From the NCBI GenBank assembly GCA_049323115.1, contig JBMOMP010000031.1, positions 36,018 through 100,017 of the forward strand: a DNA stretch of 64,000 nucleotides, written 5' to 3'. Shown here piece by piece: positions 32,050 through 56,158 of this stretch; positions within the stretch are counted from its first letter, which is position 1, and the number at the start of each line of letters is the position of its first letter. The translations under genes and the position numbers were made by a program. The notes beneath the pieces are model-generated. The model ran no database searches, had not been told where the DNA came from, and saw only the letters and a program-made list of their open reading frames with translations. The DNA comes from Chloroflexota bacterium (GTDB taxonomy: Bacteria > Chloroflexota > Anaerolineae > Anaerolineales > Villigracilaceae).

Positions 32050-33398
32050 AGGCTTAAATACGTTTCCAGCGCGGCCAGGGCGCGGTCGGCGTAGGCTTTC
32101 CCGCGCTCGCGTTTGCCGGGCGGTTTTTTGCCCGTGTGTTCCAGGGGCGGCAGGATGCCGAAGTTGGCCTTCATGGGTTGGAAGTCTTGCATGTCAGCGT
32201 GGGTGACGTAGCGGCAGAGCGCGCCCAGCATGGTTTCGGGCGGCAGTTCGAGCAGGGGACGACCGGTGAGCAGGCGCGCGGCGTTAAGTCCCGCCAGCAG
32301 GCCGGTGGCGATGTTGCCCATGTAGCCTTCTACGCCGGTGATCTGGCCGGCGAAGAACAGGTCGTCGCGCGTTTTGTGTTGTAATGTGGGGCGCAGCAGT
32401 TTGGGGCTGGCCAGGAAGGTGTTGCGGTGCATCTGGCCGTAGCGCGCGAACTCGGCGTTTTGGAGGCCGGGGATCAGGCGCAGGACGCGGCGCTGTTCCG
32501 GGAATTTCAGGTTGGTCTGGAAGCCGACCAGGTTGTAGAGATCCCCCGCCAGGTTGTCCTGCCGCAGTTGGACGACGGCATACGGGCGGCGCCCGGTGCG
32601 GGGATCGGTCAGACCGACCGGGCGCATGGGACCGAAGGCCAGCGAGTCGCGTCCGCGCCCGGCGATGATCTCGACCGGCAGGCAGCCTTCGAAGAAGTGA
32701 TGCGCGCCCGCCCTGACGCCGGCTTTGATGGCGTCTTCGAAGGAGCGCAATTCGATGCGCTCGGCCTCCAGCAGGGCGTGGACGAAGGTTTCGTATTCTT
32801 CTTTCGTGAAGGGACAGTTGAGGTAATCGCCCTCATCCTGCTCGCCCTTGCCGTAGCGCGAAGCGTGGAAGGCGATCTCCATGTCGATGCTGTCCGCTTC
32901 CACGATGGGGGCAATGGCGTCGAAGAAGTACAGGTTTTCTTCGCCGTTCAGTTCGGCCAGCGCTTGCGAGAGCGCCGGGGAGGTGAGCGGGCCAGAGGCG
33001 ATGACGGCGGGCGTCCCTGGGATGCCGGTGGCTTCCCGGCGGATGACTTCGATATTGGAGTGGTTCTGGATGCGTTCGGTGACGGCGCGCGCGAAGCCTT
33101 CCCGGTCTACGGCCAACGCCCCGCCTGCGGGCAGGGCGGTCGCTTCGGCGCAGGCCAGCAGCATGGAGCCCAGCCGGCGCAGTTCGTTCTTGAGCAGGCC
33201 GGATGCACGGTCGGGCAGGTTGGAGCCAAGTGAATTCGAACAAACTAACTCGGCCAGGTCCGCGGTCTGGTGCGCGCCGGTGGAGGTTTCCGGGCGCATC
33301 TCGTACAGCCGCACTTTGAGTCCGCGTTGGGCGGCTTGCCAGGCGGCCTCGCTGCCCGCCAGTCCGCCGCCGATGACGGTGAGGGAGGGGGTATTCAT
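32046..33398 (-). CDS. trmFO: Methylenetetrahydrofolate--tRNA-(uracil-5-)-methyltransferase TrmFO
   Basis: From the internal ATG 33398 it reads [23 protein letters not shown] (FAD motif). LVCSNSLG and GQITGVEGY are also present. The upstream part of the ORF overlaps the divergent gene. Confidence 0.9.
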
Positions 33399-33440
33399 GT
33401 GAGAACCGATTGTACCATTTCCAGTTGTTTCGACTCGTGT

Positions 33441-33449
33441 TGTATAATC
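33441..33449 (+). promoter_or_regulatory. Extended -10-like element for the multi-GAF kinase operon
   Basis: TGTATAATC lies 10-18 nt upstream of the ATG at 33459, so any leader would be very short or absent. No good -35 was seen. Confidence 0.35.
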
Positions 33450-33458
33450 AGGTTGTTT

Positions 33459-36089
33459 ATGAAAGAATCCAGCAGAGTGCTTCATCTTATCAAAGAAGCG
33501 GCCCATATCACTGGCGCGGATTGGGGGGCGCATTTGGAGCGCCAGGGCGGAAAGTGGCATTTTTTGCATGTGTATCGTATCAATAAGAAGCGAGTTGTTG
33601 CGCTGGGCGAGTACCTTTCCCGGGCGTCTGTGGATTCTTGGTTGTGTGGGGCGTTAGGTAGCCGTTCCAGCCGCTCGCGCAGTATTTTGGATGAATCGGT
33701 TTTGGGTTGTCCGCGTTTGTATGCGTATCCGGTGGGTAAGAGCACGGATGTATTGTTGGTCGGTGGAGGGGAGCAAGACAAAACCTCGCGGGCTGTTTGG
33801 AAATTGGCGGCAGACGCATTGTCTGATGGCGCTGCGCAGGAGCCGGAGGTTTTGCCAGTGGTTAGCGACACGCTCGTCCCGGCTATCCAGGAGGGAGTGC
33901 CTTATGACCTTCCGGCGGCCTTGGATAGGATTCTGGCCTTGATCGCGCAACAAATTCCTTGCCAGGGGGCATGGTTGGGCGTGCGGCGCGGCGATATCTT
34001 CGATCTGCGTTCTCACTGGCGAGCGCCGCAATGCAAGAATATCTCCCTGGCAATGGAGGCTTACGATGCGCTGCGAGAGATCGGCCTGACTCATGCTGGT
34101 TTGCGCTTCGAGCGCGACCAGCCGGGCTGGGAGTTCATTCCGCAAATGGGTTTGAAACCGACGACTGGCGCGTGGGGTTGCGTTCCGTTGGTAGTGGGCC
34201 GACGGTTGATTGGGGCCGTTGCATTGTGGCGTTTGCGTACTTTCAACGACCAGGAGTGGAAACAGTTTTTGGAACTGGTTGCGCGCGCTGCGCCGTCCGT
34301 TGAAATCATCCTTACTTTTACGGAATTGAGCGGCCATTTGCGTCGTTTGGCCTTGCTGAATGATTTTGTGTTGACCGTTTCTTCCGGCCAGAATTTGGAC
34401 CAGATTGCGCGGCGCGCATTTGCGTTGGTTTCGCGCGCATTTCAGACCGAGTCGATCAGTATGTATCTGTTATCCACTGATGGGCGTATGTTGCGAGAAT
34501 ATCAAAATGACAGTGGACGGTTGTCAATTCAGACCGGCAGTGTAGCAGGACACCCCTTTGCTTCTGTTCTGAAACTTGGACACATTCAATCTTTTGACAG
34601 GGAGTCGGCCCCCAGTGACTTGCAATTTGCTTTGGATGAAACACACACATTGATGTTGGTACCGCTGAAATATCGTGGGCGCAATAATGGTTTACTCGTC
34701 CTTGGGCAGGAACGATTAGATGAGTTTTCGGTTTATGATATCCACTCTTTGACGGTTTTGTCGGGCTATTTGGCGGGTTTGGTCGAATATAGTCGCCTGC
34801 GTGAGGAAGCGGAGGGGCGTGCAAGAAATCTTGGCTTGATTCATGAGGTGGTGCAAGAGGTAATTGGCCTGGTGAATAAGCAGGAAGTCGTGCAGATCAC
34901 GGCTGAACTATTGGTACAGTATTTCGGGTACGAATTTGCAGTGATTGTTTTAGTTGACAATGACGGGAATGTAACAATATGTGGTGTCGGCGGTTCCCAT
35001 GCCCCTTCTGTGCAAACGATCTTATCTGAACTTTTGGTGTCGGCCAAAGAAGGGGAGGGAGGTATACCTCGTCATGTGTTGCAGACAGGAGAGAGTTTGC
35101 TTGTGAACGATGTAAGCAGGTCGCCGTTATACCATCCACTTCGAGGTTGGGAAGCGGGATCAGAATTGTGCATTGCCCTAAAAGAGGGGAATCACGTTAT
35201 CGGTTTGATGGACATCGAAAGCAGCGTTCAGAATGCTTTTGGGCAAAATGATTTTATGGCATTAGAATCTTTAGCGGGTATCTTGAGTAGCGTACTATCC
35301 AGCGCTGACCAGTACCAGCGTTTGCAAGAGAATGTTCTTCAGTTGCGGCAAATCCAACTTGAATTGCAGACCAGGATTGAGGCGCAGATGGAAGCGGAGC
35401 GTAGATTGATCCAGGCGGAAAAACTGGCAGCGGTCGGTGAAATGGCGGCCGGCATTGCGCATGAATTGAACAATCCACTGACAACAGTGACCGGGTTTAC
35501 AGAACTTGTGCTGGATGAAATGTCAGAAGATGCGTCCAACCGGCCTGACCTTGAGATGGTTTTGAAAGAGGCACGACGTGCACGGGATGTCGTGCGTCGT
35601 TTATTGGATTTTTCTCGCCGTAGCGAAAGCGAACGTACGCGTGTGGACATAAATCAATTGGTGAACGACGCCCTTTCTTTGACAAAGCATTTGATTCATA
35701 CGAGTGGCGTCCAACTGGACCTGCGCTTAGGAAAGAATTTACCCTGGGTTTCCGTAGACCGGAATCAGATTAAACAGGTTTTCCTGAATTTGTTTCACAA
35801 TGCGTTGCAAGCAATGCCGGCGGGTGGTAGCCTGGTGGTAGAGACTTGTTTTCGTGAGCGTGATGAACGGAAGTGGGTGGTTGCTGTTGTAGCGGATACG
35901 GGCAGTGGAATCGCTGAGGCTCACAAAGAGCGTATTTTCGAACCATTTTTCACTACCCGCTCTGGGCAAGGTGGTACCGGCCTGGGCCTTTCAGTGACAT
36001 ATGGGATCGTTTCTGACCACGGTGGCATGATCGACGTGGATAGTGGTGTAGGACAAGGGGCTCGTTTTACCGTGTGGTTACCTTTTTAG
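33459..36089 (+). CDS. Multi-GAF sensor histidine kinase
   Basis: It starts at the internal ATG 33459. Several GAF-like modules precede a coiled coil. H-box: [15 protein letters not shown]. HATPase_c: [19 protein letters not shown]. Confidence 0.85.
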
Positions 36090-36098
36090 GTTTTTTAG

Positions 36099-37691
36099 AT
36101 GAAGAAGATGGAAGAGCGGATTCTTGTACTAGACGACGAGCCGGGGATCACTTTGTTGTGTAACCGCTTATTGAAAAGGCAAGGATACCAGGTTACTCCC
36201 TTTACTTCCGCAGCGCCCGCTATCGAGTATTTGCGTGCCAATCAGGTTGATTTGCTCCTTGTTGATATTCGAATGCCCGATATAGATGGGTTTGAAGTGA
36301 TTGAATACGCCAGGAAATTACAGCCTGATATTGCCGTTTTGGTCATGACTGGGTTTGGGACGGTAGAGACAGCTATTCAGGCTCTTCGAAGGGGCGTTGA
36401 TGGGTTATTGCTTAAACCATTCGAAAAAAGTAGCGAATTGGTCGATTCGGTAAAACAATCCCTGGTTGATAGTGAGAAAAAGCATGATGCTGCGCGTATC
36501 CAGGCCCTGCGACCATTGTTTGCTGTAACTGAATCTTTTTTTTCGGAGACTCATCCTGAGCAATTGTTGAGTTTGATCATCAAGGCGATCCGTAGCCATC
36601 TTCGCTGCTCTTGTTCCGGTTATTACCAATATGAAGGAGAAAACCTGGAATTGCTTCTTGGTGAAGGGAGCGTGATTGACCCGCTAAGAAGCAAGGTGGA
36701 GAAGGATCTGCTTCTTGAGATTGCGGCATTTGGTGGGCCGCTTTTGGTTAATTGTTCTGGCCCAGGGAATCCCACTTTACAATCACGTTTACGGAAACTT
36801 GGTTTTGGCGCAATTTTATTTGTGCCAGTAACGCGGTTGAAAGTGCGTAGTATGTTGTTCGCAGGGCGAGAGTCCCAGGATTCTCCTTTCCGCGAATCCG
36901 ATATGGAAATGTTCCTTATTCTTGCCAATCAGGCTGCTGTTGCTATCGAGAACGCGCGTCTGTATGCTGAGTTGCGAGATTATGTAAAACAAGTCGAAGA
37001 ATCGCAACAGGCCCTGCTCCAGGCTGAAAAGATGGCAGCCGCCGGGCGCCTGACCGCCTCTATTGCCCACGAAGTGAATAATCCCTTGCAGGCGGTGCAA
37101 AACTGCCTGCATCTCGCTGGGCGCGAAGACCTGTCTGGAGAACAACGTACAGAGTATTTTGAGCTTGCAAAAACCGAATTGAATCGGTTGATGTCCACAG
37201 TGCAAAGGATGTTGGATTTTTATCGTCCTGGTGCTGTTGCTCCGAGTGAAGTGATCATCCCTGACGTTTTGAAGCATGTGATGGATCTCATGTCTCAACA
37301 ATTGACAAAGCGTGGTATCGTCGTAGATGTGGGCGTTCCTGCTTCCTTGCCGCCTGTTTTTGCAGTGAGCAGCCAAATCCAACAAGTATTTATCAATTTG
37401 ATTCTAAATGCTTTTGATGCTATGCCTGAAGGAGGGGTTCTTCAAATCCATGTACATGTGGTGCGACGAGGTGTTGAGATATTGTTTCAGGATAATGGTC
37501 CGGGCATTCCCCAGGACCGGCTGGCGCACATTTTTGAACCGTTTTATAGTACAAAAAGTGGGGGCACAGGTTTGGGCTTAACCGTCAGTTACAATATCAT
37601 TACTGCACATGGTGGTTCTTTAGATCTTGTCACAAATAATAAACCGGGAGCATGTTTCCGTGTTTACTTGCCGTTTGGAGGAAAAAGATGA
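36099..37691 (+). CDS. Hybrid REC-GAF-histidine kinase
   Basis: N-terminal receiver: ILVLDDEPGI...LLLVDIRMPDIDG. A GAF domain follows. H-box: SIAHEVNNPLQAV. HATPase_c: GGTGLGLTVSYNIITAHGG. Confidence 0.85.
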   Translation: MKKMEERILVLDDEPGITLLCNRLLKRQGYQVTPFTSAAPAIEYLRANQVDLLLVDIRMPDIDGFEVIEYARKLQPDIAVLVMTGFGTVETAIQALRRGVDGLLLKPFEKSSELVDSVKQSLVDSEKKHDAARIQALRPLFAVTESFFSETHPEQLLSLIIKAIRSHLRCSCSGYYQYEGENLELLLGEGSVIDPLRSKVEKDLLLEIAAFGGPLLVNCSGPGNPTLQSRLRKLGFGAILFVPVTRLKVRSMLFAGRESQDSPFRESDMEMFLILANQAAVAIENARLYAELRDYVKQVEESQQALLQAEKMAAAGRLTASIAHEVNNPLQAVQNCLHLAGREDLSGEQRTEYFELAKTELNRLMSTVQRMLDFYRPGAVAPSEVIIPDVLKHVMDLMSQQLTKRGIVVDVGVPASLPPVFAVSSQIQQVFINLILNAFDAMPEGGVLQIHVHVVRRGVEILFQDNGPGIPQDRLAHIFEPFYSTKSGGTGLGLTVSYNIITAHGGSLDLVTNNKPGACFRVYLPFGGKR

Positions 37692-38428
37692 AATTTAACA
37701 TTCTGGTTGTTGACGATGAACCTGTTTCACGTAAATCGCTTACTGATATTTTGCGATTGGAAGGTTATAGTGTTGCTTCTGTCCCGAATGGGCAGGCTGC
37801 AATTGAGCATATCCGAACCCATCACATTGACTTGATGATCGTGGACCTTCGTATGCCGGGCATGGATGGCTTGGAAGTTGTCCAAGTTGTGAACCAGATT
37901 GCTTCCGACACAGAGGTGATTGTGTTGACTGCTTATGGCTCTACTGAAACGGCCATCCAAGCATTACGCTTAAGGATACATGATTATTTGTTGAAACCCG
38001 CCCCTCCTGCGCAGGTTTTGACCAGCGTTAAAAAAGGATTGGAGCGTCGCGCGTTGCGAGTGCGCGCAAAAGGTGTGGATTCAGATTCGTCTGATCTGGA
38101 AGAAATCTTGGATTCTGTTTCGCTTCCTGATGGGACAGTAGTGGACTTGTCACGCCGGCAAATCCGGCGCGGGGAAGTTTTAGTTAGCCTGACGCCGGCT
38201 GAGGGTCGCTTGTTGCGTGTATTATTGATCAACGAGGGCAAGGTTTTTGCTCATCGTGATCTGGTATTGCTTGTCCAGGGGTATGATACGTCGCAACGAG
38301 AAGCGCCGGAGATCCTGCGACCTTTGGTAAGCCGGCTTCGACATAAACTTGAAGCATTTCCGGCGCTGTCTGAACAAATTGTCAGTATCCGGGGAACAGG
38401 GTATGTTTTTGAAGGGAAGACAGAATGA
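37688..38428 (+). CDS. OmpR/PhoB-type response regulator (REC + winged helix)
   Basis: MKFNILVVDDEP...LMIVDLRMPGMDG, with a C-terminal LTPAEGRLLRVLL...IVSIRGTGYVF. An ATGA overlap couples it to the upstream kinase. Confidence 0.85.
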   Translation: MKFNILVVDDEPVSRKSLTDILRLEGYSVASVPNGQAAIEHIRTHHIDLMIVDLRMPGMDGLEVVQVVNQIASDTEVIVLTAYGSTETAIQALRLRIHDYLLKPAPPAQVLTSVKKGLERRALRVRAKGVDSDSSDLEEILDSVSLPDGTVVDLSRRQIRRGEVLVSLTPAEGRLLRVLLINEGKVFAHRDLVLLVQGYDTSQREAPEILRPLVSRLRHKLEAFPALSEQIVSIRGTGYVFEGKTE

Positions 38429-38449
38429 GCGGAAATGGTTGAATTGTTC

Positions 38450-39382
38450 TCAGGGTAGGTCAGGGGGAAAACTGGTTGGTGGGCGCAGCCACCCCAGCCA
38501 ACCACTCTTTGCAGGTTTGCGCACTTTGGCAGGCTTGTCGAAGTATATTAAGAGTATGCTTATGCTAAGGATGCCAGCACCAATCCATTGTGCCTGCGCA
38601 AGTTTCTCATGTAACCATGCAATGCTCAGTCCAATGGCGACAAGTAACTCCAATAATCCCAGAAGCGCGGTTTGCATCCCGCCAAGGTATTTTACACCTT
38701 GAAATAGTGCGAGCCGGGAAAGGAAAGTAACCAGCGTCAACCCAATTATGGGGTACCAACTCGCATTAGAAGGCAGTGGTTGGCCCACAAGAAGAAACAC
38801 TGGTACAACAACCAAACTCATAGCAATTAGCGTATATAGCGTGACAGTAGGAGCGGGGACGTCATAGAGTACACGTTGGTTGATAGGCAGGTGAAGCGCG
38901 TATAGGATCGATGCGAGTAGCATTTGACCAACACCAATCATGTCAATGTGGACTGATTCTGAATAAGTCAATAGAAAAACGGCAATCATCGCAAGAGTAA
39001 TGCGAAAAAGGGTTAATTTGTTAGGAGGTTGCGAGTCCAAAACCAGCCAAATTGCTACGAAGAGAGGGTAAAGGGAATAGAGCAATTGTCCAAGACTCGC
39101 ATCGATACGGCCCAGTGCCGAATAATATAATATAGAACCAACTCCATTGAATAATCCTGCCAATCCGCACCCAATTAACCCTGCTGGATATATGTAGAGA
39201 TACTCACGCCGAAATACAATCACGATAAACAATAACAAGAGGGCAGCCATCAATGTTCGGATACCAACTACTGCGAGAGGTGAAAACCCCAGGTTGATTG
39301 CTTGTTTGCCAAAAACAGGCGTAAAGCCAAGGAAGGTTGCAGACAGCAAAACAGCCCGGACCCCCGTTTTACGTTTTTGCAT
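38450..39382 (-). CDS. EamA/DMT family transporter (last gene of the large minus-strand operon)
   Basis: 310 aa with 10 TM segments in two EamA-like halves. It starts 11 nt downstream of the ThrC-REC gene. Confidence 0.8.
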   Translation of the reverse strand: MQKRKTGVRAVLLSATFLGFTPVFGKQAINLGFSPLAVVGIRTLMAALLLLFIVIVFRREYLYIYPAGLIGCGLAGLFNGVGSILYYSALGRIDASLGQLLYSLYPLFVAIWLVLDSQPPNKLTLFRITLAMIAVFLLTYSESVHIDMIGVGQMLLASILYALHLPINQRVLYDVPAPTVTLYTLIAMSLVVVPVFLLVGQPLPSNASWYPIIGLTLVTFLSRLALFQGVKYLGGMQTALLGLLELLVAIGLSIAWLHEKLAQAQWIGAGILSISILLIYFDKPAKVRKPAKSGWLGWLRPPTSFPPDLP

Positions 39383-39393
39383 GGGTTTTGACC

Positions 39394-41064
39394 TTAATCC
39401 AGTAAAGAGCGGACTTCATCAAGAAATTCATCGTTGAGAAAATCTCCTTTTTGCATCAACGATTGAATTTGCCCTTCCAGTCTGTTTTTTTCATCGGGTG
39501 TCAGTTCTTTGGCTGAAGCAACAATTACAGGAATATTTGCTGTTTCGGGGTTGCGCTTCAGGATATCAATGACTTCAAATCCATCCATTTCTGGCATGAT
39601 AAGATCCAGAATAAGCAGGTCCGGTCTTTCTTTCTCAATCAGTGTCAAGGCCGCTTTGCCGTTTTCGGCTTCGAAAATAGTGAAATCGCCTTGCGATTGT
39701 AATATCCTCCTGATCAAGCGGCGTGCATCAGCGCTATCATCTGCAATTGCAATGCGCGGGAATCCTTCTGGCGCCACACGGTTTAGCGCAGCGAGCAAGC
39801 CATCTTGTTGGGGTATCTCACCGCGGCTTGGCATTTCTACATCCAGCGACCAATCCTCTCCAAGCAACCATTGTTCGGCGGGCATCGTATGGCCTGTGCA
39901 ATTCACAACCACAGTATCTGTGGGCTTTATGATGCCATGTCGTACCAGCTTGAATAATCCTGCAAACGCGACCCCTGCAGCAGGTTCTACAGAGAGTCCT
40001 TCCATCTTTGCAACCACATGCATAGCTCGGAAAGCTTCCCCGTCGCTGACGCTTTCAAATATCCCCTGCGTTTCATCAACCTCCCGCTTCAGCAACTTGT
40101 AGGTTCGGCCTGGATCGCCAGTTGCAAGCGTCTCGATATGAGTTTGGGGTGTAGTAATCACAATTGGAGTTTCAAGGCCTTGTTTCCAACTTGTGACCAT
40201 CGGTGCGCACCCTTCTGCTTGGATGGCAGCAATTGCGGGTAAGCCATTGACAAAACCCATTTTGGAGAGTTCGCGAAATCCTTTAGAGACTCCTAATGGT
40301 CCCATGCCGCCACTGACGGATTGGATATACCAATCCGGCGTGCGCCACTTGGGTGGATTTTTACTGCCGTTCGAAGAATATCCGGGTTTCTGGGCAAGTT
40401 GTTCGGCCACTTCATAGGCAATCGTTTTCATTGCCTCTACAGAAGTAATTGTCCTTGCTCCCATATCATGGTACAAACCGCGCTGGCGAGCAAACTCGGA
40501 TGCCATTTGTTTGGTTTGGTCATAGGAGCCGGTTACTTTGACAACTTGGCTTCCATATAAGGCAATTTCGCGCATTTTAACCCCAGGCACCAAGCTGGTT
40601 ACAAACGCCCAGAGTTTTATTCCAGCACGTGCAGCGTACGCAGAGTATGAAATCGCTACATTCCCGGTAGATGCAGCAACCAATTCTGTGATACCAGCCT
40701 CTTTTAATGCTGCAATGGTGACAGCCGCTTGCCGGTCCTTGAATGAAGCCGTGGGTCCTTGACGCTCATCTTTGATATATAGGTTCGAACATCCAAGCAT
40801 CATACCCAAGTTAACTGCCTGGATGAGTGGCGTGCCGCCTTCTCCCAGGCTGATGTTGGCGTTAGGAGTGCGAACTGGTAATAACTCGTGATACCTCCAA
40901 AGATCGAACGTGCGTTCGTGTAGTTGCGCTCTCCAGATCTCCGCTACTGACGCCAGGTCATATTCCGCAACTCTCCACTGGCTGTTGCATTTGGGGCAAC
41001 TTGCAATTGTTGGATGGAATGGCGCTGCATGATTGCAGTCCAAACATCTGATTTGAAATGTCAC
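39394..41064 (-). CDS. Threonine-synthase-like PLP enzyme fused to a C-terminal response-regulator receiver domain
   Basis: Zn-ribbon: CLDCN...CPKCN. PLP-lysine motif: GPTASFKDRQAA. Also ASTGNVA. The REC domain reads RIAIADDSADARRLI...DLLILDLIMPEMDGFEVI...PVIVASAK. The GTG at 41064 lies 7 nt after AGGAGG. The ORF-track start at 41085 is a TTG. Confidence 0.8.
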   Translation of the reverse strand: MTFQIRCLDCNHAAPFHPTIASCPKCNSQWRVAEYDLASVAEIWRAQLHERTFDLWRYHELLPVRTPNANISLGEGGTPLIQAVNLGMMLGCSNLYIKDERQGPTASFKDRQAAVTIAALKEAGITELVAASTGNVAISYSAYAARAGIKLWAFVTSLVPGVKMREIALYGSQVVKVTGSYDQTKQMASEFARQRGLYHDMGARTITSVEAMKTIAYEVAEQLAQKPGYSSNGSKNPPKWRTPDWYIQSVSGGMGPLGVSKGFRELSKMGFVNGLPAIAAIQAEGCAPMVTSWKQGLETPIVITTPQTHIETLATGDPGRTYKLLKREVDETQGIFESVSDGEAFRAMHVVAKMEGLSVEPAAGVAFAGLFKLVRHGIIKPTDTVVVNCTGHTMPAEQWLLGEDWSLDVEMPSRGEIPQQDGLLAALNRVAPEGFPRIAIADDSADARRLIRRILQSQGDFTIFEAENGKAALTLIEKERPDLLILDLIMPEMDGFEVIDILKRNPETANIPVIVASAKELTPDEKNRLEGQIQSLMQKGDFLNDEFLDEVRSLLD

Positions 41065-41106
41065 GTTGCGGCCTCCTGGCAACAAGCATATTCCTATGAT
41101 TTTTTC

Positions 41107-44100
41107 TCAGTTATCTATGCGTTTGAGCGCATTTTCAATCGTGCCGATGAGTTCTTGTTCTTGCAAGGAACTTTTTTGTAATAACCTTTGTCCAAACATT
41201 TGAAGTTGGCCATATTGTTCGTTTGTCAAGTCGCTACTACTTACAACAACTACAGGGATATCCCTTAGTTCATTGTTTTCATGTAATTTCTCAAGAATCG
41301 AGAATCCATCTACATCTGGCATGAATAGATCCAAGACAATGGCATGTGGCGTCTTTGATTGAATGGCGTTCCACCCTGCCTGCCCACCTTCTGCTAGAAT
41401 AGGTTTGTACCTTCCTTGATTAGAAATCATCGTTCCTAACAGGCGCAGATCGTTTGGGTCGTCGTCTATGATTAGTATTTCTCGAATACTTCCATCGTTG
41501 TTTAGCCGATCTAGCGAAGAGAGTAAATCATCTTCTACGATTGGTTTGACCAGATAATCTGCTGCTCCTAAGCTAAAGCCTTTTTCTTCTTCCTCCAGGA
41601 TGCTGCAAATGATTATTGGGACACTGCGTGTTTCGGGGTCGGATTTTAGGTCATCGAGAACGTGCCAGCCGTCGTACCCTGGCATCATAATGTCCAATAT
41701 GACTGCAAAAGGTTTCAATTGTCTTACTCGTTCTTTTGCCCGTTGTGGATCTTTCAAACTGATTACTTGGAAACCTTTTGGCCTCAGATACCGCTCATAC
41801 AGGTTGAGGATTTGTGGGTCATCGTCAATAGTCAAGATTGTCTTGAAGCCGCTTTTTGAAATCTTTTGTTCTTTCACGAAGATAGGAACGGTAAAATAAA
41901 ATGAACTTCCTCTTCCTGGCATGCTGTGTATACCGATGCGACCATGATGCATTTGAACCAGATGATGGCAAATTGATAATCCAAGGCCTGACCCGCCAAC
42001 TTTGCGAGTTAATGACGCATCAACTTGTGAGAAGGGCTGGAACAGTTTGGCTTGATCTTCGGGGGAAATGCCTGGTCCAGTGTCGGTCACAGTGACGATT
42101 ACAGAAGATTGTCCAGTGGTCAGGTCGTCAACCTCGGCCCTTACGGTGATTTCTCCCTTTTCTGTGAATTTGGCTGCGTTAGAGAGCAAGTTAATCAATA
42201 CCTGCCTGATGCGCATGGGATCGGCGCGGACTGTTGGAAGATCAGTTGCAATCTCTTGTTTCAATGTAATTGGTTTGTCTTTGATCAAGCCAGCAGCAGT
42301 GGACATCACGCTTGTAACCAGATCGTCGATATTTACTTCGCTAAAGGAAAGTTCCATCTTGCCCGCTTCGATGCGGGAAAGATCAAGGATGTCGTTGATC
42401 AGACCGAGCAAATGTTGTCCGGCGTTGAAAATCGCTGTCAGGTCTTGTTGTTGTAGTTCTGTAACAGGACCGTCAATGCCTTTGAGGATGACGCGCGCAA
42501 ACCCAATGATCGAATTGAGCGGGGTGCGAAGTTCATGGCTCATATTTGCCAGGAATTGACTTTTTAGACGGTCAACCTCCCGCATTTCTTGAACGGCCTG
42601 CTGGGCGATGTTGTAAGAGCGCGCATTGTCAATACCAATGGCAATTTGGTCGGCCAATAGTTGAAGAATTGCTACGTCGTCTTGGGAAAAAGCATTTACT
42701 TCCGTGGACTGAATATCCAAAACGCCGATGATTCGGTTGCCAATGTGCAGGGGAATGGCGGCTTCGGCTCTTGTATCGGGTAGTAGAGGGTTCGGTTTGT
42801 GGATAGGATCAAGCGCTGTGTTGTTGATGACGATTGCGTTTCCGGTTTCGGTCGCTTGTCCTACGGTTGATTTGGAGCCGACTGTCAAGGAATGCCCACG
42901 TTGCTTCATCTGCTCTCCGGCTTCGCCGGTGGCTTCCTGTAGCACCGCATTGAAACCGGTCTCTTCGACAATGAAGATGGCAGCGTGGTAGTATCCAAAG
43001 CGTTCTTTTACCAGGTTTACAGCGCGCGAGAAGATGGCTTTCAAGTCCAGGGAAGATGTGACCAGGCGTCCGATCTCGGCTGAGGCGGCCAGGTACTCGT
43101 TTCGGCGTCGCAGCGCTTCTTCGTTTTGCTTGCGTTCGGTAATGTCGCGCGCGATGCTCATGATAACGGTTCTTCCCGCATAGGACACCAGGCTGGAACT
43201 GATCTCCACCGGGATGTCTTTTCCATCTTTCGTCCTGTGTGAAGTCTCGAAAACTTGGACCTTATCCCTGGGCATGTTACTGGCAAGGTTTTGGATCTGT
43301 TCAGGGATCAGATTTACATCTATGTCGGAGATTTTCATGGACAGGAGTTCTTCCCGGCTGTAACCCAGGGCGGTCATGGCGGCGTTATTGACGTCCAAAA
43401 TCGTCGTATCGAAATCAATGACCCAGATGGTATCGTTCATGCCATTGAGCAAATCCCGGTATTTTTCCTCGCTTTCTCGCAAGTTTTCTTCCGCACGCTT
43501 GCGTTCGGTGGTGTCTCGCGCAACCCAGAAGACGTGGTTTTCGGTCAGTTTTGAGACGCTGGCGTCGAACCAATATTCAGCGCCGTTTATTTCCAGCGGA
43601 TATTCGATTTCTTGCGATTGCCCGGTGTCAAGTGTAGTCCGAATTGTCGATAAGAAGGGTTCATGAAGGTTTTCGGGCAATACTTCTTGCAATGTCCGGC
43701 CAAGCATTTCTTCAGTGGGACGGAACAGGTGGTTTGGGTTTGTCTCTGCAATGCGCTCATACCTGCCTTCACGGTCATAGATAATGATGACATCTTCCAT
43801 GGCGGCGAACAGCGCTTTTAGTTCGGACTCGGACTGTTGTGTTTGTTGGAAAAGACGGGCATTTTCAATGGCAAAGCCGATTTGCCGCCCAATTGATTGC
43901 GTCAGGCTAATCACATTTTCCGACATTGGCTCAGGGTTTTCGTTGAAAACACATAATGTGCCAACGATTTGCCCTTTTGCTTCCAGGGGGACGCCCAAAT
44001 ATGCAAACAATCCGTTGTTAATTAGCCCTGTGAAATCAACAGGCGTCCCTTCCCGCGTGTCAGAAACAGCCAATGTAGATTGCGATTTGAATACATGGTC

Positions 44101-45282
44101 GCACGGAGTCCCTGCCAGTCCCGCGGCTTGCAGTTTTTCTAGAACAGGTAATGGCAAGTTTTGGTGTGTAAATAATTCCAACTGACCCGAGGCTTCATTC
44201 TTGAGTGAAATGAGACCGCAACTGAAACCAAGCATATCCAAGATTTGTGCAAGGAGCGTTTCCAAGAGTTGCGTTAATTCCAGTGTTTGGCTGGAAGAGA
44301 AGATGATTCGGTTGAGGGCGCTTAATTCCTCAGCCCGAGCCTGTGTCTCTTGGAATAACCTGGCGTTGTCTAGGGCAACTGCAGCCTGGTTGGATAAAAT
44401 CATAGCCAGGTTCAATTCTTGTTGGGAGAACTGTCTTTCCTGGTAAAGTTCTTCGAGATGGATCATCCCTGTTGCACGGCCCTGCATGATGAGCGGCAAA
44501 CGCACCTGTGATTTGACACCATATTTCCTCATGTAGTCCTGTTCGGCGCTATCCAGGCTCGGATCATTAATTTGCAGGATGACAGGTTGCAACGTTGCCA
44601 GCATTTGTTGCGTGGCCGGGTAGTCTGCTGGGTCTGTTTCCAGGTTTGTCCATAATTCGTCTTCGGGGCGTTTTTTGTTTTCTGGTATGTAATCAACAAT
44701 GGTGCGCATTTTCCCTTGAGGGGTGAGCAAGAGAATAGAACATTCTGTTACCTGGAAAATTTGTATGAAGTATTTTGCAATCAGGTTCGCAATTTCTTCC
44801 AGTTGTAATGGCAACTCTGCCAGGTTCTGGCTTACGTTGAGTAGTGTTGTCAATTCTTGAACACGCTGTTGCGTTTCCTGGAACAGGCGCGCATTTTCCA
44901 TCGCAAGGGACAGTTGGTCGGCTACTTGTTTGACCAGCAATTGTTCTTCGGCGCCCCAAGTGCTTTTTCCTGATTCATCAACGACCTTGAGCGTCGACCA
45001 ATTCTTTTCGTCTATTCGGAAAGCGGTAGAAAGCATTGCAGTGGGGGAAACCTGCGTTGTAACGGGAGCAAGCCTGTCGTCGGCTTGAAGCGTCATCCCC
45101 GTCCCTGATAAAATTTCGGATATTTCATCCGAAAGGCTCATGGGAACGGACGGAAGGCTGGGCGCCTGTTTGGGCTTTCGACCGCCGCTTCTGCCCGGAC
45201 GTTCGGCTTGCGTCTCTGCTTCGTTGCTTTTTATCTCGTCGAAAAGTTTGTCAAGCCTGTTGTTTATCTTTTTCTTCGACAT
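41107..45282 (-). CDS. Giant hybrid sensor histidine kinase (half-GAF module, multiple GAF, 2 PAS, GAF, HisKA, HATPase_c, 2 REC)
   Basis: H-box: MSHELRTPLNSIIGF. HATPase_c: GGSGLGLSICHHLVQMHHG. The two receivers read ILTIDDDPQ...ILDIMMPGYDG and ILIIDDDPN...VLDLFMPDVDG. PAS-like segments are present. Start taken at ATG 45282 (MSKKKINN...), because the TTG at 45399 would overlap the ParA gene by about 150 nt. Confidence 0.85.
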   Translation of the reverse strand: MSKKKINNRLDKLFDEIKSNEAETQAERPGRSGGRKPKQAPSLPSVPMSLSDEISEILSGTGMTLQADDRLAPVTTQVSPTAMLSTAFRIDEKNWSTLKVVDESGKSTWGAEEQLLVKQVADQLSLAMENARLFQETQQRVQELTTLLNVSQNLAELPLQLEEIANLIAKYFIQIFQVTECSILLLTPQGKMRTIVDYIPENKKRPEDELWTNLETDPADYPATQQMLATLQPVILQINDPSLDSAEQDYMRKYGVKSQVRLPLIMQGRATGMIHLEELYQERQFSQQELNLAMILSNQAAVALDNARLFQETQARAEELSALNRIIFSSSQTLELTQLLETLLAQILDMLGFSCGLISLKNEASGQLELFTHQNLPLPVLEKLQAAGLAGTPCDHVFKSQSTLAVSDTREGTPVDFTGLINNGLFAYLGVPLEAKGQIVGTLCVFNENPEPMSENVISLTQSIGRQIGFAIENARLFQQTQQSESELKALFAAMEDVIIIYDREGRYERIAETNPNHLFRPTEEMLGRTLQEVLPENLHEPFLSTIRTTLDTGQSQEIEYPLEINGAEYWFDASVSKLTENHVFWVARDTTERKRAEENLRESEEKYRDLLNGMNDTIWVIDFDTTILDVNNAAMTALGYSREELLSMKISDIDVNLIPEQIQNLASNMPRDKVQVFETSHRTKDGKDIPVEISSSLVSYAGRTVIMSIARDITERKQNEEALRRRNEYLAASAEIGRLVTSSLDLKAIFSRAVNLVKERFGYYHAAIFIVEETGFNAVLQEATGEAGEQMKQRGHSLTVGSKSTVGQATETGNAIVINNTALDPIHKPNPLLPDTRAEAAIPLHIGNRIIGVLDIQSTEVNAFSQDDVAILQLLADQIAIGIDNARSYNIAQQAVQEMREVDRLKSQFLANMSHELRTPLNSIIGFARVILKGIDGPVTELQQQDLTAIFNAGQHLLGLINDILDLSRIEAGKMELSFSEVNIDDLVTSVMSTAAGLIKDKPITLKQEIATDLPTVRADPMRIRQVLINLLSNAAKFTEKGEITVRAEVDDLTTGQSSVIVTVTDTGPGISPEDQAKLFQPFSQVDASLTRKVGGSGLGLSICHHLVQMHHGRIGIHSMPGRGSSFYFTVPIFVKEQKISKSGFKTILTIDDDPQILNLYERYLRPKGFQVISLKDPQRAKERVRQLKPFAVILDIMMPGYDGWHVLDDLKSDPETRSVPIIICSILEEEEKGFSLGAADYLVKPIVEDDLLSSLDRLNNDGSIREILIIDDDPNDLRLLGTMISNQGRYKPILAEGGQAGWNAIQSKTPHAIVLDLFMPDVDGFSILEKLHENNELRDIPVVVVSSSDLTNEQYGQLQMFGQRLLQKSSLQEQELIGTIENALKRIDN

Positions 45283-46036
45283 ATTCCAGTAGCTCCTGGG
45301 CAAGGACACGATATTGTTGCGAGCCGCGACTATTGGGTTTGTATTGCGTAATTGGCTGGCCGGCAATAGGGCTTTCCCGCAGTTTCGTGTCAATTTCAAT
45401 CACGGTTTCGAACAGGCCTTTGCCAAAGGTATTTTGCAGTTGCTCTTGGATGTTACGGTGGGTGCGGTTCCTGCGATCCAGCATGGTGATGAGGATGCGG
45501 TAGGCGAGGTCGGGGTTGCTTTCCTGCCGTATCCGACGGATCATCCCCATCATATTGCGCAGGGCATAGGCAGAAAAGAACTCGGCTTGCGTAGGGATGA
45601 CCAGCAAATTTGCTGCGCTCAAGGCGTTTTGGGTAATGGCCCCCAGGAAGGGCGGACAGTCCAACAGGACAAACTGGTAGGGTAAGGGGGCTGCTGCTCC
45701 CAACGCGCGTCTTAGGATGGCTGTGTAGTTGTTGCGGATAGGGAGGTATTGCTCTGCAGTTTCGATGTTGGAGTGCGCCGGGATCAAGTCAATATTCTCG
45801 ATTTCTGTCTTTTGGATGGCGCTCAACAAGGGGGCTCCTTCTACCAGTATGTTGCTGGACGAAACCGGCGCCTGGTTGATTTCCAACCCAACGGCCAGAG
45901 TTAAATTTGCCTGGGGATCCAGATCCATCAGTAATACTCTTTGTCTGGTTTCTGCCAGGGCGGCGCCAAGAGATAAGGTGGATGTTGTTTTTGCCACCCC
46001 GCCTTTCTCGTTTGCAATTGCAATTATGTAAGTCAT
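45251..46036 (-). CDS. ParA/MinD-like deviant Walker-A ATPase (orphan; no ParB or parS nearby)
   Basis: IAIANEKGGVAKTTSTLSLG is the KGGxxK[ST] motif, followed by LLMDLDPQAN and VLLDCPP. The ATG at 46036 lies 6 nt after GGAGA; an alternative ATG is at 46042. Confidence 0.85.
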   Translation of the reverse strand: MTYIIAIANEKGGVAKTTSTLSLGAALAETRQRVLLMDLDPQANLTLAVGLEINQAPVSSSNILVEGAPLLSAIQKTEIENIDLIPAHSNIETAEQYLPIRNNYTAILRRALGAAAPLPYQFVLLDCPPFLGAITQNALSAANLLVIPTQAEFFSAYALRNMMGMIRRIRQESNPDLAYRILITMLDRRNRTHRNIQEQLQNTFGKGLFETVIEIDTKLRESPIAGQPITQYKPNSRGSQQYRVLAQELLEYVEEKDKQQA

Positions 46037-46076
46037 ACGCATTCTCCGTGCCCGGTTTTATCAATTTGAGCTGTTT

Positions 46077-48104
46077 TCATTTTTCATTGCTCTCTGGTTT
46101 TGGCAGGACGTGAGGCAATAACTGTACTTGTGTAGCCCCAAGCGCCACTTTGAGTTCTTCAAGGGCGATTCGTACCATGTCATCTGGATCGCTGGCGCTT
46201 CGTATTTTTGTTGTAATATCGGATACAAGGCGTTCTCGCTCTGCACGGCGCGTTGTCTCTTCCAAGAGGCGTGCATTCTCTGCCGAAATCGCCACGCGGC
46301 CAGCAACTGCCTTGATTAAATCCAGTTGATCCACACTCGGTTCTACTGTCAACGGAAGGTGGACGTCCAGCGTACCAATACGCTCTCCGCGGATCTCGAT
46401 TGGCATGGAGACTGAGTGGGTTCGCTCCTCGGTTGCAAGCAGGCTTTTATCCTGATTGAACCGTTGCCAGTCGCTTGGTTTTTCGACCTGGCTAACTCCG
46501 TCGGCTGTATAAATGATCCCGGCCAATGCCTGCTCTTTTGGTAATCTGTTCCAGGCTTGTCGGATGTATTGCCGGTAAACTGTCTCGGCTTCGTCCAGGG
46601 ATTTCCGCGCCTGGTCAAACAGGCGTGCATTTTCGATTGCAAGGCTCACCTGATCTGCCAGGAGGGAGAGCGCGCGAACATCATCTTCGCTAAAGGCGGC
46701 CGGCTCGGTGCTTTGTACATCCAGGGCACCAACGATAGATTTGCCAATCCTCAATGGTAGCGCTATTTCTGAGCGAGTTTGTGGCAGGTCGGGATTGTCG
46801 AAAAATACTGCATCTTCGCCAACATCCAGCGCGATACGCGGGTTGCCCGATCCGGTTGTGTAACCAACGATACCTTGTTCTCCTATCTTCAACTTATGCC
46901 CGCGCTCAAGCATGTGTTGGCCGCCTTCACTGTTCGCCGCCCTGAGAAGAGCATATTCTTTTCGGTCGTCGGTAAGGAAAATACCGACATGGTAAAAGCC
47001 AAACTCGCGACTGATCAGCTGGGTTATTTGGGGTAACAGTTCGTCCAAAGAGCGGATGGACGAAATTGCGCTGCTGACCAAAGTGATGGCCTCGAACTGT
47101 TTTGCACGCCGGTTGCTTTCTCTGCTCGCTAGTGCCAGGTCGCGGGTGCGTTCTTGCACTCTCTGCTCCAGTCCTGTCAGCGTCTCTCGAAGTTGTCTGG
47201 ACATATTGTTGAGCGTAGAAGCGAGGGCGGATATTTCGTCATTGCCGCCAATCGAAATAATAGCGCGCCTGTCCAGGTAACCTTCTTCCATAGCCTGTGC
47301 GGCATTTTGCACAACTTGCAATCTTTTGCTGACAGAGCGGGCGATGGAATAAGAAAGCAACAGACCAAAAATGATTGCTAGAAGTAGAGCCAGGACCATC
47401 CGTAAAATGATATCCTGGTAGGCGATTTGGATCATTTCGTTCAGCACGGTGGAAGCGTCGTCATTAATTTCAATTAATTGTTCAATGGAAGAGCGCGCCG
47501 ACGCAAGCGCTAAGAGTGCATCTTGATTTGCTTCGATGTCTAGAGCGCCTGCTTCTATTGCAACGACCATTGCGTTATATGATGATGAATATTTGGCATA
47601 TTCACTCGCAAACCGGTTAAAGTTCTCCAACTCCTTTGCCTGTAAGTCGTTGACCTTTTGTTCGATCTCGAGTTGTTTTGTTTGGCGCAGACCGGCAGGG
47701 AACTCTAAGGGTATAGGAGACAACCAAGTTGCCGCATACGTATCAATAATTGGTTTTATTTGTTCTTCCGCAGCGTGGATCGTTTGAATGTGATGGGTTT
47801 GTTCAGCCGTCAGGAGGTTTTTGTTTTGTAATGCAATCAGTGCAGTTTGAATATCGGCTAAAGCAGTGTTTACTTGACTGACTTTGGTGAAAGGTAGCAA
47901 TACTGTTTCGTAGTTTTTGTCTTGTTGGGCGCGAATTAACGTTAAACCACGGAGTGCGGTCAGGAAGACACCTATCGTGCCTAGCGCCATTACAAAGATC
48001 AATACGTTTAATTTCCAACTGACCTTTATATTTGCGAAGATGTCTTCCTGCGATTCTGCAGGCGCTTGCATTGTTTGTATTTGGCGGATATCGTTTGCGG
48101 TCAT
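46077..48104 (-). CDS. Receptor-like protein P1: TM / 4-helix-bundle-like sensor / TM / HAMP / signalling helix / GAF / half-GAF module / conserved tail; no output domain
   Basis: HAMP: IARSVSKRLQVVQNAAQAMEEGYLD...NDEISALASTLNNMSRQL. S-helix: LEQRVQERTRDL. GAF: FGFYHVGIFL...RSEIALPL...GALDVQS...LADQVSLAIENARLF. Tail: RERLVSDITTKIRSASDPDDMVRIALEELKVALGATQVQL. Confidence 0.8.
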   Translation of the reverse strand: MTANDIRQIQTMQAPAESQEDIFANIKVSWKLNVLIFVMALGTIGVFLTALRGLTLIRAQQDKNYETVLLPFTKVSQVNTALADIQTALIALQNKNLLTAEQTHHIQTIHAAEEQIKPIIDTYAATWLSPIPLEFPAGLRQTKQLEIEQKVNDLQAKELENFNRFASEYAKYSSSYNAMVVAIEAGALDIEANQDALLALASARSSIEQLIEINDDASTVLNEMIQIAYQDIILRMVLALLLAIIFGLLLSYSIARSVSKRLQVVQNAAQAMEEGYLDRRAIISIGGNDEISALASTLNNMSRQLRETLTGLEQRVQERTRDLALASRESNRRAKQFEAITLVSSAISSIRSLDELLPQITQLISREFGFYHVGIFLTDDRKEYALLRAANSEGGQHMLERGHKLKIGEQGIVGYTTGSGNPRIALDVGEDAVFFDNPDLPQTRSEIALPLRIGKSIVGALDVQSTEPAAFSEDDVRALSLLADQVSLAIENARLFDQARKSLDEAETVYRQYIRQAWNRLPKEQALAGIIYTADGVSQVEKPSDWQRFNQDKSLLATEERTHSVSMPIEIRGERIGTLDVHLPLTVEPSVDQLDLIKAVAGRVAISAENARLLEETTRRAERERLVSDITTKIRSASDPDDMVRIALEELKVALGATQVQLLPHVLPKPESNEK

Positions 48105-48107
48105 GCC

Positions 48108-50576: not shown

Positions 50577-50599
50577 ACAAACTCGTTTCGATACTTAAC

Positions 50600-52564
50600 T
50601 TAGAGCGCTTGGTTTTCAGGTTGATTGGGCGTATCGTCTGAAAGGATCTTGACGCTTACTTCACAATCGGTCAATAAAGTACCCAGGCTTTCGGCAGTGG
50701 CCCGCAGGATTGTATCCACTTCCGGTTCGGCCCCGATGCGGCTGGAAACATTGGCGATTGCGCGTTCCAGTTCGACGCGGCGTTGCGTGTCTTGGTACAA
50801 TCGCGCGCTTTCCAGCGCAGCGCTAATTTGATAAACCAGCCTGTTCACAACGCCTATTTCATCGAGCGTCCAATCTTGCGTTTCGGGTGACTTCACCAAA
50901 CGCACAATGCCGATTGTCTGGTTGCGCACTTGAATTGGAGCAGCCAGCGTTTTTCGGTCGTCGCTCAAGATAGGTTCGCCTGCCTTACTGGCTTGGACCG
51001 CCTCCGGTTGTTGCAGCGTGGCATCGCTGGGCATTATTTCTCCATGTGCATACCCGATAAAACCTGTTTTGCTTACCCTGGTGAGTACCCGTCGCCATCC
51101 TTCTTGGCTGCTTTCCGCATAAGCCCGGCGGACAGCCGCAAGAGCCTGCTGTGTTTTCTCCAATAAGCGGGCGTTTTGCAAGGCGGTTGCCAGTTGATCT
51201 GCCAGTACCTGGAGGGTAGGAATATCATCTTCGGCAAAAGCGTTTGGCTCAGTACTCTGGATGTCCAATATCCCCAGCGTTTCTCCTCCTGCAATGATGG
51301 GGAGGGACATCTCGGAGCGCGTTTGAGGTAATTGCGGATTATTGAAATAAACTGCGTCCTTACCGACATCCAGCGCGATTCTTGCCTGGCCCGAACCTGC
51401 TACCGTTCCAACGATGCCTACCTCACCGACTTTCAGCTTGTGTCCTTGCGCCAACATGCGCGCCCCGCCAGGACTGTTCGAGGCTCGCAATATAGCGTAC
51501 TCTTTAGGGTCGTCTAATAAAAAGATGCCAACATGATAGAAACCAAACCGGTCACTGATTAATTGGCTGGTCCTGTGTAGCAACTCATTCAACTCATGTT
51601 GCGCAGCGACTGACTTTCCGACCTCAACAGCCGCTTGAATTTGGGATACCCGTCTTTCCAGCGCTTTTGTGCGCTCTGCAACCTGCTCCTCCAAATTCGT
51701 TACAAGTTTTCGCAATTGGCCAGCCATGTCGTTGAATGTGTCTGCAACCAATCCCATTTCATCGGCGCTGTTGAGCTCGATCTTGGCATCGAGGTTCCCG
51801 CCTGCCAGTTGTTTGACGCCAATTGTTAGGGTTTCAAGGGGAGTGGTCAAGTTTTTGCCAAACAGCCATCCAAGTCCTGCAATGAGAGGAATGGATAAGA
51901 GAAGAACGATTGCCGCTGTAAAGAGGGCTTGTTGTTCCTTTTCAAGCACTTTGGAGGCCGATATGTCTATGCCGACGATTCCTTCGCGCTGGCCATCTGA
52001 GCGATAAAAAGGAGCATAGGCGGTGAGCCAGGTCCCCCACTTGTCAGTGTAAAAATCTGCCTCTACCACAGGCTCTTGTAAAGTCGAAAACGACTCGCGA
52101 AGTAAGGGGCCAGCATCATCATATACATCCCCCAAATGAGAAATATCCTCCTCGCTCTCTTCTGCGTCAACGATGAACACAATATTTCCATCTGCATTCT
52201 GGCGCATTGTATATACAAAGCGGATGTCTGTGCCAGAGTCGCGGATATCTTGTAAAACTCTTTTTAGCGCAAGATAGGTTTCGTTTCCTTCTTGAGATGG
52301 ATCGGTCAGCAGGGCATGTTCATCTCCATCAATCTGTAATGCGCCAACAGCGGCAACATCTCGCAGGCGCTCCCGGATATCCTGGCGCAATTGTGCGCGT
52401 GCGCTCCAATAATATGCAAGCGTTATCAGGCCGACAAAGAAGATGGCCAGGAAGGAAAAGGCAAACGCTGATTTTATTCGCAGACTCAAATAATATTGGG
52501 ACCGTCTGGTGTTATTCACGCGTTTGCCCTCCTGAGATTGCGCGTTTGCTGTCGGTCGAGGCAT
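50600..52564 (-). CDS. Receptor-like protein P3: TM / single-Cache-like sensor / TM / HAMP / GAF / half-GAF module / conserved tail
   Basis: The periplasmic segment reads IRFVYTMRQNADGNIVFIVDAE...WGTWLTAYAPF...GIVGIDIS. HAMP and LEEQVAERTKAL follow, then the GAF core. Tail: LERAIANVSSRIGAEPEVDTILRATAESLGTLL. Confidence 0.8.
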   Translation of the reverse strand: MPRPTANAQSQEGKRVNNTRRSQYYLSLRIKSAFAFSFLAIFFVGLITLAYYWSARAQLRQDIRERLRDVAAVGALQIDGDEHALLTDPSQEGNETYLALKRVLQDIRDSGTDIRFVYTMRQNADGNIVFIVDAEESEEDISHLGDVYDDAGPLLRESFSTLQEPVVEADFYTDKWGTWLTAYAPFYRSDGQREGIVGIDISASKVLEKEQQALFTAAIVLLLSIPLIAGLGWLFGKNLTTPLETLTIGVKQLAGGNLDAKIELNSADEMGLVADTFNDMAGQLRKLVTNLEEQVAERTKALERRVSQIQAAVEVGKSVAAQHELNELLHRTSQLISDRFGFYHVGIFLLDDPKEYAILRASNSPGGARMLAQGHKLKVGEVGIVGTVAGSGQARIALDVGKDAVYFNNPQLPQTRSEMSLPIIAGGETLGILDIQSTEPNAFAEDDIPTLQVLADQLATALQNARLLEKTQQALAAVRRAYAESSQEGWRRVLTRVSKTGFIGYAHGEIMPSDATLQQPEAVQASKAGEPILSDDRKTLAAPIQVRNQTIGIVRLVKSPETQDWTLDEIGVVNRLVYQISAALESARLYQDTQRRVELERAIANVSSRIGAEPEVDTILRATAESLGTLLTDCEVSVKILSDDTPNQPENQAL

Positions 52565-56139: not shown

Positions 56140-56158
56140 AAAAGTGTTTCCTTGGCCG

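Follow-up and report, generated by a model that had tools for sequence, protein, structure and literature searches.

A protein in which a receiver domain is joined to an enzyme of amino-acid metabolism raises the question of what the signalling pathway that reaches it would control. The outputs of two-component systems are overwhelmingly transcriptional or run via second messengers. The DNA analysed here (the window) is a stretch of 64,000 nucleotides from a Chloroflexota bacterium of the Villigracilaceae (assembly GCA_049323115.1, contig JBMOMP010000031.1, positions 36,018 to 100,017 of the forward strand), and the gene in question, here called ThrC-REC, lies at 39394..41064 on the minus strand, including its TAA stop. 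It encodes a protein of 556 amino acid residues (aa), in which a pyridoxal 5'-phosphate (PLP) enzyme domain similar to threonine synthase (ThrC) is followed by a receiver (REC). With moderate confidence we propose that ThrC-REC is a phospho-regulated ThrC-like enzyme, the cognate output of a multi-sensor histidine kinase, and that it works with an EamA permease.

The fusion gene and its protein

The gene is defined by an open reading frame, by a GTG start with a Shine-Dalgarno sequence and by Pfam matches to PALP and Response_reg. The open reading frame itself extends over 39394..41085 on the minus strand, with TTG as its mechanical start. The TTG start is probably too long by seven codons and GTG at 41064 is the likely one, because an AGGAGG sequence, read directly at 41072..41077, stands upstream with a spacing of 7 nt to the GTG, and because the resulting 556 aa match the size of the homologues (554–558 aa). 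In the order of the protein, and all on the minus strand, the gene encodes an N-terminal Cys4 zinc ribbon (Cys7, Cys10, Cys23 and Cys26; 40987..41046), which is also found in ThrC proteins of the PRK08197 type; a fold-type II PLP domain (PALP, 39892..40854, Pfam E 4.2e-63) with the Schiff-base lysine Lys109 at codon 40738-40740; a post-catalytic segment with a conserved GHT-P-E..LG pattern and a linker of low confidence (39754..39891), delimited by the AlphaFold2 model and the alignment; and the receiver (39448..39753, Pfam E 4.3e-20) with the phospho-acceptor Asp487 at codon 39604-39606. The receiver scores 72.4 bits against a gathering threshold of 30.2 for PF00072. The AlphaFold2 model of the whole protein has a predicted local distance difference test score (pLDDT) of 85 and a predicted template modelling score of 0.72, with pLDDT below 50 at residues 411–420 in the linker. 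An insertion of about 20 aa, QKPGYSSNGSKNPPKWRT, is also present in the PLP domain (residues ~224–243; 40336-40395, minus strand). It is lineage-specific, directly precedes the PDWY-SGGMGP loop and is missing in the majority of distant relatives, and the confidence of the model is lower there.

The family alignment comprises 128 sequences, of which 119 carry a receiver. Lys109 and S132-T-G-N are invariant in 128/128, and the other invariant sites are the four ribbon cysteines, S-F-K109-D-R, S132-T-G-N-V, S251-G-G-x-G-P, G-C286, E360 and G391, with Cys286 lying in a GCAPMV motif. The pocket of the receiver, E/D442, D443, D487, T/S517 and K539, is retained in 119/119 of the REC-bearing relatives. 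The protein of the window itself carries SFK109DRQ, D442-D443, D487, S517 and K539, all invariant or nearly so in the alignment. Among relatives that are 47–58% identical overall, conservation amounts to 60% in the PLP core, 46% in the receiver and 31% in the linker, the PLP core being in this alignment the best-conserved region of ThrC-REC. The preliminary description of this DNA had reported a ThrC-like catalytic part with a Cys4 ribbon, a PLP lysine and STGNV, followed by a canonical receiver, and all the motifs that it quoted were found. The catalytic residues are not degenerate, as the lysine and the cofactor loops are invariant across relatives down to 47% identity, and the phospho-acceptor pocket is complete. 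The PLP domain is predicted to be catalytically competent and to descend from zinc-ribbon threonine synthases, and the C-terminal receiver is predicted to be a functional phospho-acceptor.

Divergence from threonine synthase

The best-matching models for ThrC-REC are PRK08197 and TIGR00260, and the best sequence matches in the PDB are 2ZSJ, 2D1F, 1UIM and 6CGQ. Foldseek with the AlphaFold2 model places the same ThrC structures first (template modelling score ~0.84, normalised to the target), and lower down, at rank 16 and still significant, the cysteate synthase CapA2 (9k3c), which is followed by dehydratases and racemases. Both by sequence and by predicted fold, ThrC is clearly the nearest known family to the PLP domain. 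The scores nevertheless stay below the curated cut-offs, with 257.8–258.5 against 303 for PRK08197 and 143.5–144.9 against 167.1 for TIGR00260, and they are far under the cut-offs of the remaining ThrC models. A cysteate synthase identity is ruled out by the score against TIGR03844 (105.9–107.7 bits against a cut-off of 324.9), and by sequence CapA2 9k3c is matched with an E value of 5.4e-7 only.

The family was mapped on the numbering of Thermus ThrC, and the alignment reproduces K61, S84-T88, N154, S155, R160 and N188. K109 and S132-T-G-N of ThrC-REC align to K61 and S84-N87, and the carboxylate loop is retained. The differences lie at T88, N154, S155, R160 and N188, which we take to be the residues binding the phosphate of O-phosphohomoserine. 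In the fusion clade T88 is replaced by an invariant Val (V136), N154/S155 by x-G202, R160 by S/A/G208 and N188/N191 by G/G (N188 corresponding to G252), the cofactor loop GNAGN being changed into SGGMGP. Moreover, Q164 is replaced by Met, and a new invariant K/R is gained at position 204. Since the zinc-ribbon proteins P0247, P0235 and P0219 keep the complete canonical set, these changes are specific to the clade and not general to ribbon-bearing ThrC. O-phosphohomoserine is not the obvious substrate, because the pocket differs just where ThrC holds its phosphate; most likely the substrate pocket has been remodelled, and the enzyme would either act on something other than O-phosphohomoserine or bind it differently. 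As judged from its sequence, ThrC-REC is not a canonical ThrC. The earlier view of it as a specialised ThrC-like paralogue and not a degenerate one agrees with the invariant lysine and cofactor loops and with the strong conservation of the PLP core.

The SGGxGP signature is not confined to the fusions but is also present in REC-less proteins at 40–52% identity, most of which are under the ThrC cut-offs. In a neighbour-joining tree (without branch support) the fusions form one clade, within which REC-less proteins of the P0127, P0274 and P0283 types are nested, and this suggests either receiver loss or transfer. Binatia-type proteins, which keep R160, and P0136, P0150 and P0172 are placed outside the fusion clade, and then come the zinc-ribbon ThrC-like proteins. 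P0127, the nearest REC-less relative, passes both PRK08197 (305.5 against 303) and TIGR00260. In two loci from metagenome-assembled genomes (MAGs) of Candidatus Binatia (L083, 8001-10724, and L087, 8001-10708), genes for REC-less SGGxGP relatives of 435–438 aa are found in polysaccharide-biosynthesis clusters, directly upstream of a gene for a PLP decarboxylase of the ornithine/diaminopimelate/arginine type. This context hints at an unusual amino acid or amine made for glycan decoration, and from the position of these genes beside a decarboxylase in polysaccharide clusters it appears that at least part of the wider SGGxGP clade serves specialised rather than housekeeping chemistry. Other REC-less members are solitary and give no clue.

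A second zinc-ribbon ThrC-like protein (417 aa, TIGR00260 match) is encoded in the window at 15107..16360 on the plus strand, and the two genes are clearly paralogues. It had been taken for a conventional thrC without a receiver. The gene exists and its product passes TIGR00260 (186.2 against 167.1), but the label "conventional" is not warranted, as the protein fails PRK08197 (267 against 303) and has four substitutions relative to canonical ThrC (T88A, S155T, R160T and N188D). An AI-2E family transporter gene (16357-17517) follows it.

Distribution and conserved gene linkage

In the first protein search, 120 clusters at ≥72% identity among the matches listed all had PALP plus REC, and the named members were MAGs of Anaerolineales or Anaerolineae. 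A profile search that used REC-less relatives added about 100 further fusion clusters, ~47–58% identical to the protein of the window, from Anaerolineae, Thermoflexus/Thermoflexia, Aggregatilineales and "Chloroflexota". In total there are more than 200 fusion clusters at 90% identity clustering, and roughly six full-length ones at 50% clustering, including two of ThrC-REC-REC proteins of 708–715 aa. All named fusion proteins come from Chloroflexota, and their current annotations are "threonine synthase", "PLP-dependent enzyme" or "hypothetical protein" only. A homologue with a public accession is WP_352428621.1, from MAGs of Thermoflexus sp. A GTDB genome scan that used the single protein was dominated by hits to the generic receiver motif MPEMDGFE. 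With only four full-length loci, it is little guide to the spread outside Chloroflexota. The statement that a metabolic enzyme fused to REC is uncommon stands for bacteria as a whole, across which the fusion is rare, but not for Anaerolineae, within which it is common and ancient. Literature searches that combined threonine synthase with receivers, response regulators or Anaerolineae turned up no description of the ThrC-REC architecture.

The gene upstream of ThrC-REC, at a distance of 42 nt, encodes a hybrid histidine kinase of 1430 aa (41107..45399, minus strand; start codon uncertain), in which Pfam recognises three GAF, two PAS, HisKA, HATPase_c and two REC domains. The gene downstream encodes a permease of the EamA/DMT (drug/metabolite transporter) family (38450..39382, minus strand; 310 aa, two EamA repeats, Pfam E 2.2e-30), and its ATG starts 11 nt past the TAA stop of ThrC-REC, as had been noted before. 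About 9–10 hydrophobic segments are seen in its hydropathy scan. The amino-acid transporter model TIGR00950 is the only permease match there, and with 63.8 against a cut-off of 230 it indicates similarity at the level of the family. ThrC-REC is the penultimate gene in a co-directional run from 58300 to 38450 with small gaps or overlaps, and its description as the penultimate gene of a signalling operon was borne out by this arrangement. Promoter and terminator scans gave counts at chance level, so the operon call relies on spacing and synteny; no terminator-like sites were found in the gaps between the kinase, ThrC-REC and EamA genes.

The order kinase, ThrC-REC, EamA is present in L001 and L002 (contigs of 850 kb and 453 kb), in L003 and L004, in L091, whose fusion is 94% identical, and also in L090, where the fusion and the EamA protein are only 47% and 40% identical to the copies in the window. 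The linkage was counted in 80 metagenome loci of close relatives (67–87% identity), with the loci that have enough flanking DNA as denominators. EamA is directly downstream of the fusion in 75/75 loci, a histidine kinase is directly upstream in 59/59, and a ParA-like gene is further upstream in 32/33. In the subfamily of the window, the linkage of the fusion to the kinase and the permease is obligate.

Further upstream in the window there is a gene for a ParA/MinD-like P-loop ATPase (45251..46042, minus strand; Pfam AAA_31, E 2.8e-45), and then genes for six sensor proteins (46077..58300, minus strand), which according to Pfam have 4HB_MCP, dCache or MASE11, then HAMP and then GAF. No kinase, cyclase or MCP-signal output domain was recognised by Pfam in the six sensors, and no HPt domain among the cluster proteins scanned. 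Five of these paralogous sensors share a conserved tail of 150–190 aa, made up of the C-terminal half of a GAF domain and ~45 aa resembling the beginning of a further GAF, and the sixth has a tail of 68 aa that keeps the last ~45-aa part only. Together with the ParA/MinD-like ATPase, the six sensors resemble a receptor array feeding one kinase.

Proposed mechanism and alternatives

The setting of the fusion, with a kinase on one side and a permease on the other, suggests a signalling pathway with chemistry and not gene regulation at its end. The pathway would begin with the battery of HAMP-GAF proteins, acting upstream of the hybrid histidine kinase. As no HPt domain was found in the cluster, the dimerisation and phosphotransfer domain of the kinase would then phosphorylate D487 directly. 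Phosphorylation of the receiver would switch PLP-domain activity, for instance by receiver dimerisation acting on a ThrC-type dimer. Finally, the co-transcribed EamA permease would carry an amino-acid-like substrate or product across the membrane. DMT permeases transport in both directions; export of the product, as first suggested for this gene pair, is plausible. A more specific version, which we put forward as a tentative and rather doubtful extension, is that a multi-sensor phosphorelay of filamentous Anaerolineae has no transcription factor at its end; instead, phosphorylation would gate a repurposed threonine synthase that makes a non-proteinogenic amino acid, and a dedicated EamA exporter would release this product immediately. 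If this is true, the two-component system would have a secreted small molecule as its output, which might serve as an intercellular signal or as a precursor of the cell envelope.

Several points weigh against a phospho-regulated enzyme working with the kinase and the permease. The whole case is built from sequence, predicted structure and gene linkage, and the AlphaFold2 model, with low confidence in the linker, gives nothing on contacts between the receiver and the PLP domain. For the phosphate roles of T88, N154, S155, R160 and N188, taken from the structures of Thermus ThrC, the analysis confirms the numbering and the residue identities only. Zinc-ribbon ThrC-like proteins are highly variable at the phosphate-pocket positions, and the conserved K/R204 could hold a phosphate, so that phospho-amino-acids may be the substrates. 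The REC-less proteins of the P0127 type, nested in the fusion clade, could be genuine ThrC. Furthermore, the pairing with EamA, put forward earlier as a property of this gene, holds in the 75 loci of close relatives and in L090 but is not universal. In L088 (9001-11518) a ThrC-REC-REC protein of 714 aa, of which P0122 and P0123 are further variants, comes after a dCache-HAMP-GAF kinase and is followed by a single-domain receiver, without EamA. In L089 (7949-12420), from a Thermoflexus MAG, a gene of the IF-2B family (similar to MtnA/ribose-bisphosphate isomerase) ends 6 nt before the fusion gene and one for an SBP_bac_5 solute-binding protein follows it, with neither a kinase nor EamA nearby.

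Among the alternatives, the one that survives best, though we regard it as unlikely, is that the PLP domain is a ligand sensor like those of MocR and GabR, and that the protein is an amino-acid-gated phosphate sink or connector in a phosphorelay, with EamA supplying or removing the ligand. A C-terminal receiver is seen in hybrid kinases and CheV, unlike the N-terminal receivers of classical regulators; kinases and receivers abound in the cluster, where no HPt domain was found; and variants with two receivers, then a third, exist. GabR senses through aldimine formation, and conservation of the PLP lysine would fit such sensing as well. However, it is the entire catalytic apparatus that is invariant and not the lysine alone, and conservation is highest in the PLP core; REC-less members of the clade occur in biosynthetic clusters, and the tight coupling to a permease fits a flux of metabolites.

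A genuine threonine synthase under two-component control, with EamA as a threonine/homoserine exporter like RhtA and regulated overflow or cross-feeding as its purpose, is decidedly unlikely. No other models or structures match nearly as well as those of ThrC, the REC-less P0127 passes both ThrC models, and RhtA belongs to the EamA/DMT family. The other thrC-like gene of the window is atypical too, so that either copy may be the housekeeping enzyme, if one of them is. Yet the fusion is under every ThrC cut-off (258 against 303, and 144 against 167), and R160, N188, N154/S155 and T88 are replaced although canonical zinc-ribbon proteins exist (P0247, P0235 and P0219). The permease, too, reaches only 63.8 of the 230 set as the cut-off of the amino-acid transporter model.

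Still less probable is a sulfur-incorporating ThrC relative that makes a sulfur amino acid on demand, in the manner of cysteate synthase, which uses O-phosphoserine and sulfite, or of the homocysteine synthase MetM, which makes homocysteine from O-phosphohomoserine and a thiocarboxylate. Both enzymes are documented as offshoots of ThrC that are commonly misannotated as ThrC (PMC12172450; bioRxiv 10.1101/2024.10.14.618325). CapA2 9k3c is a significant fold match at rank 16, and the invariant Cys286 in GCAPMV would agree with such chemistry. Against this, the cysteate synthase model gives 105.9–107.7 against 324.9 and the sequence match to 9k3c is just E 5.4e-7. An adjacent gene for a MetO-like sulfur carrier is absent, as the flanking gaps of 42 and 11 nt leave no space for one. 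The Rfam scan of the window, in which tRNA was the only hit, found no riboswitch or leader and thus no SAM (S-adenosylmethionine) riboswitch. A decayed pseudo-enzyme or pseudo-receiver kept as a scaffold would agree with the failure of all curated equivalog thresholds, but it is effectively refuted, because the lysine, the cofactor loops and the receiver pocket are 100% conserved in more than 100 relatives, down to 47% identity.

Genomic context of the cluster

The co-directional run is headed by a gene for a stand-alone receiver (58736..59188, minus strand; Pfam Response_reg, E 1.1e-28). On its other side, genes for a kinase, a REC-GAF-kinase and an OmpR-type regulator (33270..38428, plus strand; Pfam) converge on it. 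This trio is also present in L001, L004 and L091, and L002 is without it.

The signalling cluster at 34300-59200, including ThrC-REC and EamA, has a GC content of 0.47–0.50 and a GC content at third codon positions (GC3) of 0.44–0.53, with 0.60 for the ParA-like gene. GC3 is 0.78–0.81 in the flanking trmFO, M28 peptidase and thrC-like genes and 0.65 in rpoB. The low-GC region has its left junction within the 5' portion of the kinase gene at 33270..36089. In L091, which is 87% identical in DNA over 33426-44650, the same low-GC cluster has a different flank of higher GC. The low-GC region looks like a compositional island or a recombined segment. An assembly chimera is an unlikely cause of the GC shift, since L091, a second metagenome contig, has the same cluster. 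At the right edge of the region a tRNA-Gly(CCC) gene (59215-59287, minus strand) adjoins the stand-alone receiver gene. Integration at this tRNA was considered and rejected, as the left edge (32.5–35.5 kb) showed no direct repeat of it.

Significance and comparison with known systems

If the proposed pathway is right, a receiver coupled to a PLP enzyme of amino-acid metabolism and to a permease adds post-translational metabolic control to the two-component repertoire. It would also open a way into the signalling of the Anaerolineae, which are abundant in sludge, sediments and soils and about whose regulation, to our knowledge, almost nothing is known. Moreover, the names now given to this large fusion family, "threonine synthase" and "PLP-dependent enzyme", are probably incorrect and can lead pathway reconstruction astray in the genomes that carry the fusion, and the remodelled pocket marks a ThrC-derived clade with a chemistry of its own to find.

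Three groups of known proteins can be compared with ThrC-REC and its permease. Zinc-ribbon ThrC (PRK08197; EC 4.2.3.1) and the class II structures 2ZSJ, 2D1F, 1UIM/1V7C and 6NMX have the Cys4 ribbon and the fold-type II PLP domain in common with ThrC-REC, and the SFKDR lysine motif, the STGN loop and the E-P-A motif are shared with ThrC as well. Unlike ThrC, it falls under the cut-offs, has T88/N154/S155/R160/N188 replaced and SGGMGP for GNAGN, and ends in a receiver. Cysteate synthase (TIGR03844; CapA2 9K3C) and MetM provide the precedent of a ThrC scaffold reused for other substrates or nucleophiles and annotated as "threonine synthase"; unlike both, ThrC-REC is fused to a receiver, and its score is far under the cysteate synthase cut-off and no gene for a sulfur carrier lies near it. 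The permease has two EamA repeats and about 10 segments in common with RhtA, EamA/YdeD and YddG, a likeness at the family level only.

It is well known that response regulators can have enzymes as partner domains. CheB methylesterase, the diguanylate cyclases PleD and WspR, the HD-GYP protein RpfG and the RssB/PP2C types share with ThrC-REC the combination of a receiver and an enzymatic partner domain. Like these enzymatic response regulators, ThrC-REC has a full phospho-pocket, an adjacent histidine kinase gene and an enzyme as its sole other domain. Unlike them, its partner is a PLP amino-acid enzyme, its receiver is C-terminal and not N-terminal, and some of its variants have two receivers. 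A PLP amino-acid enzyme as the partner of a receiver placed at the C-terminus appears to be an arrangement undescribed so far, yet abundant in one bacterial class.

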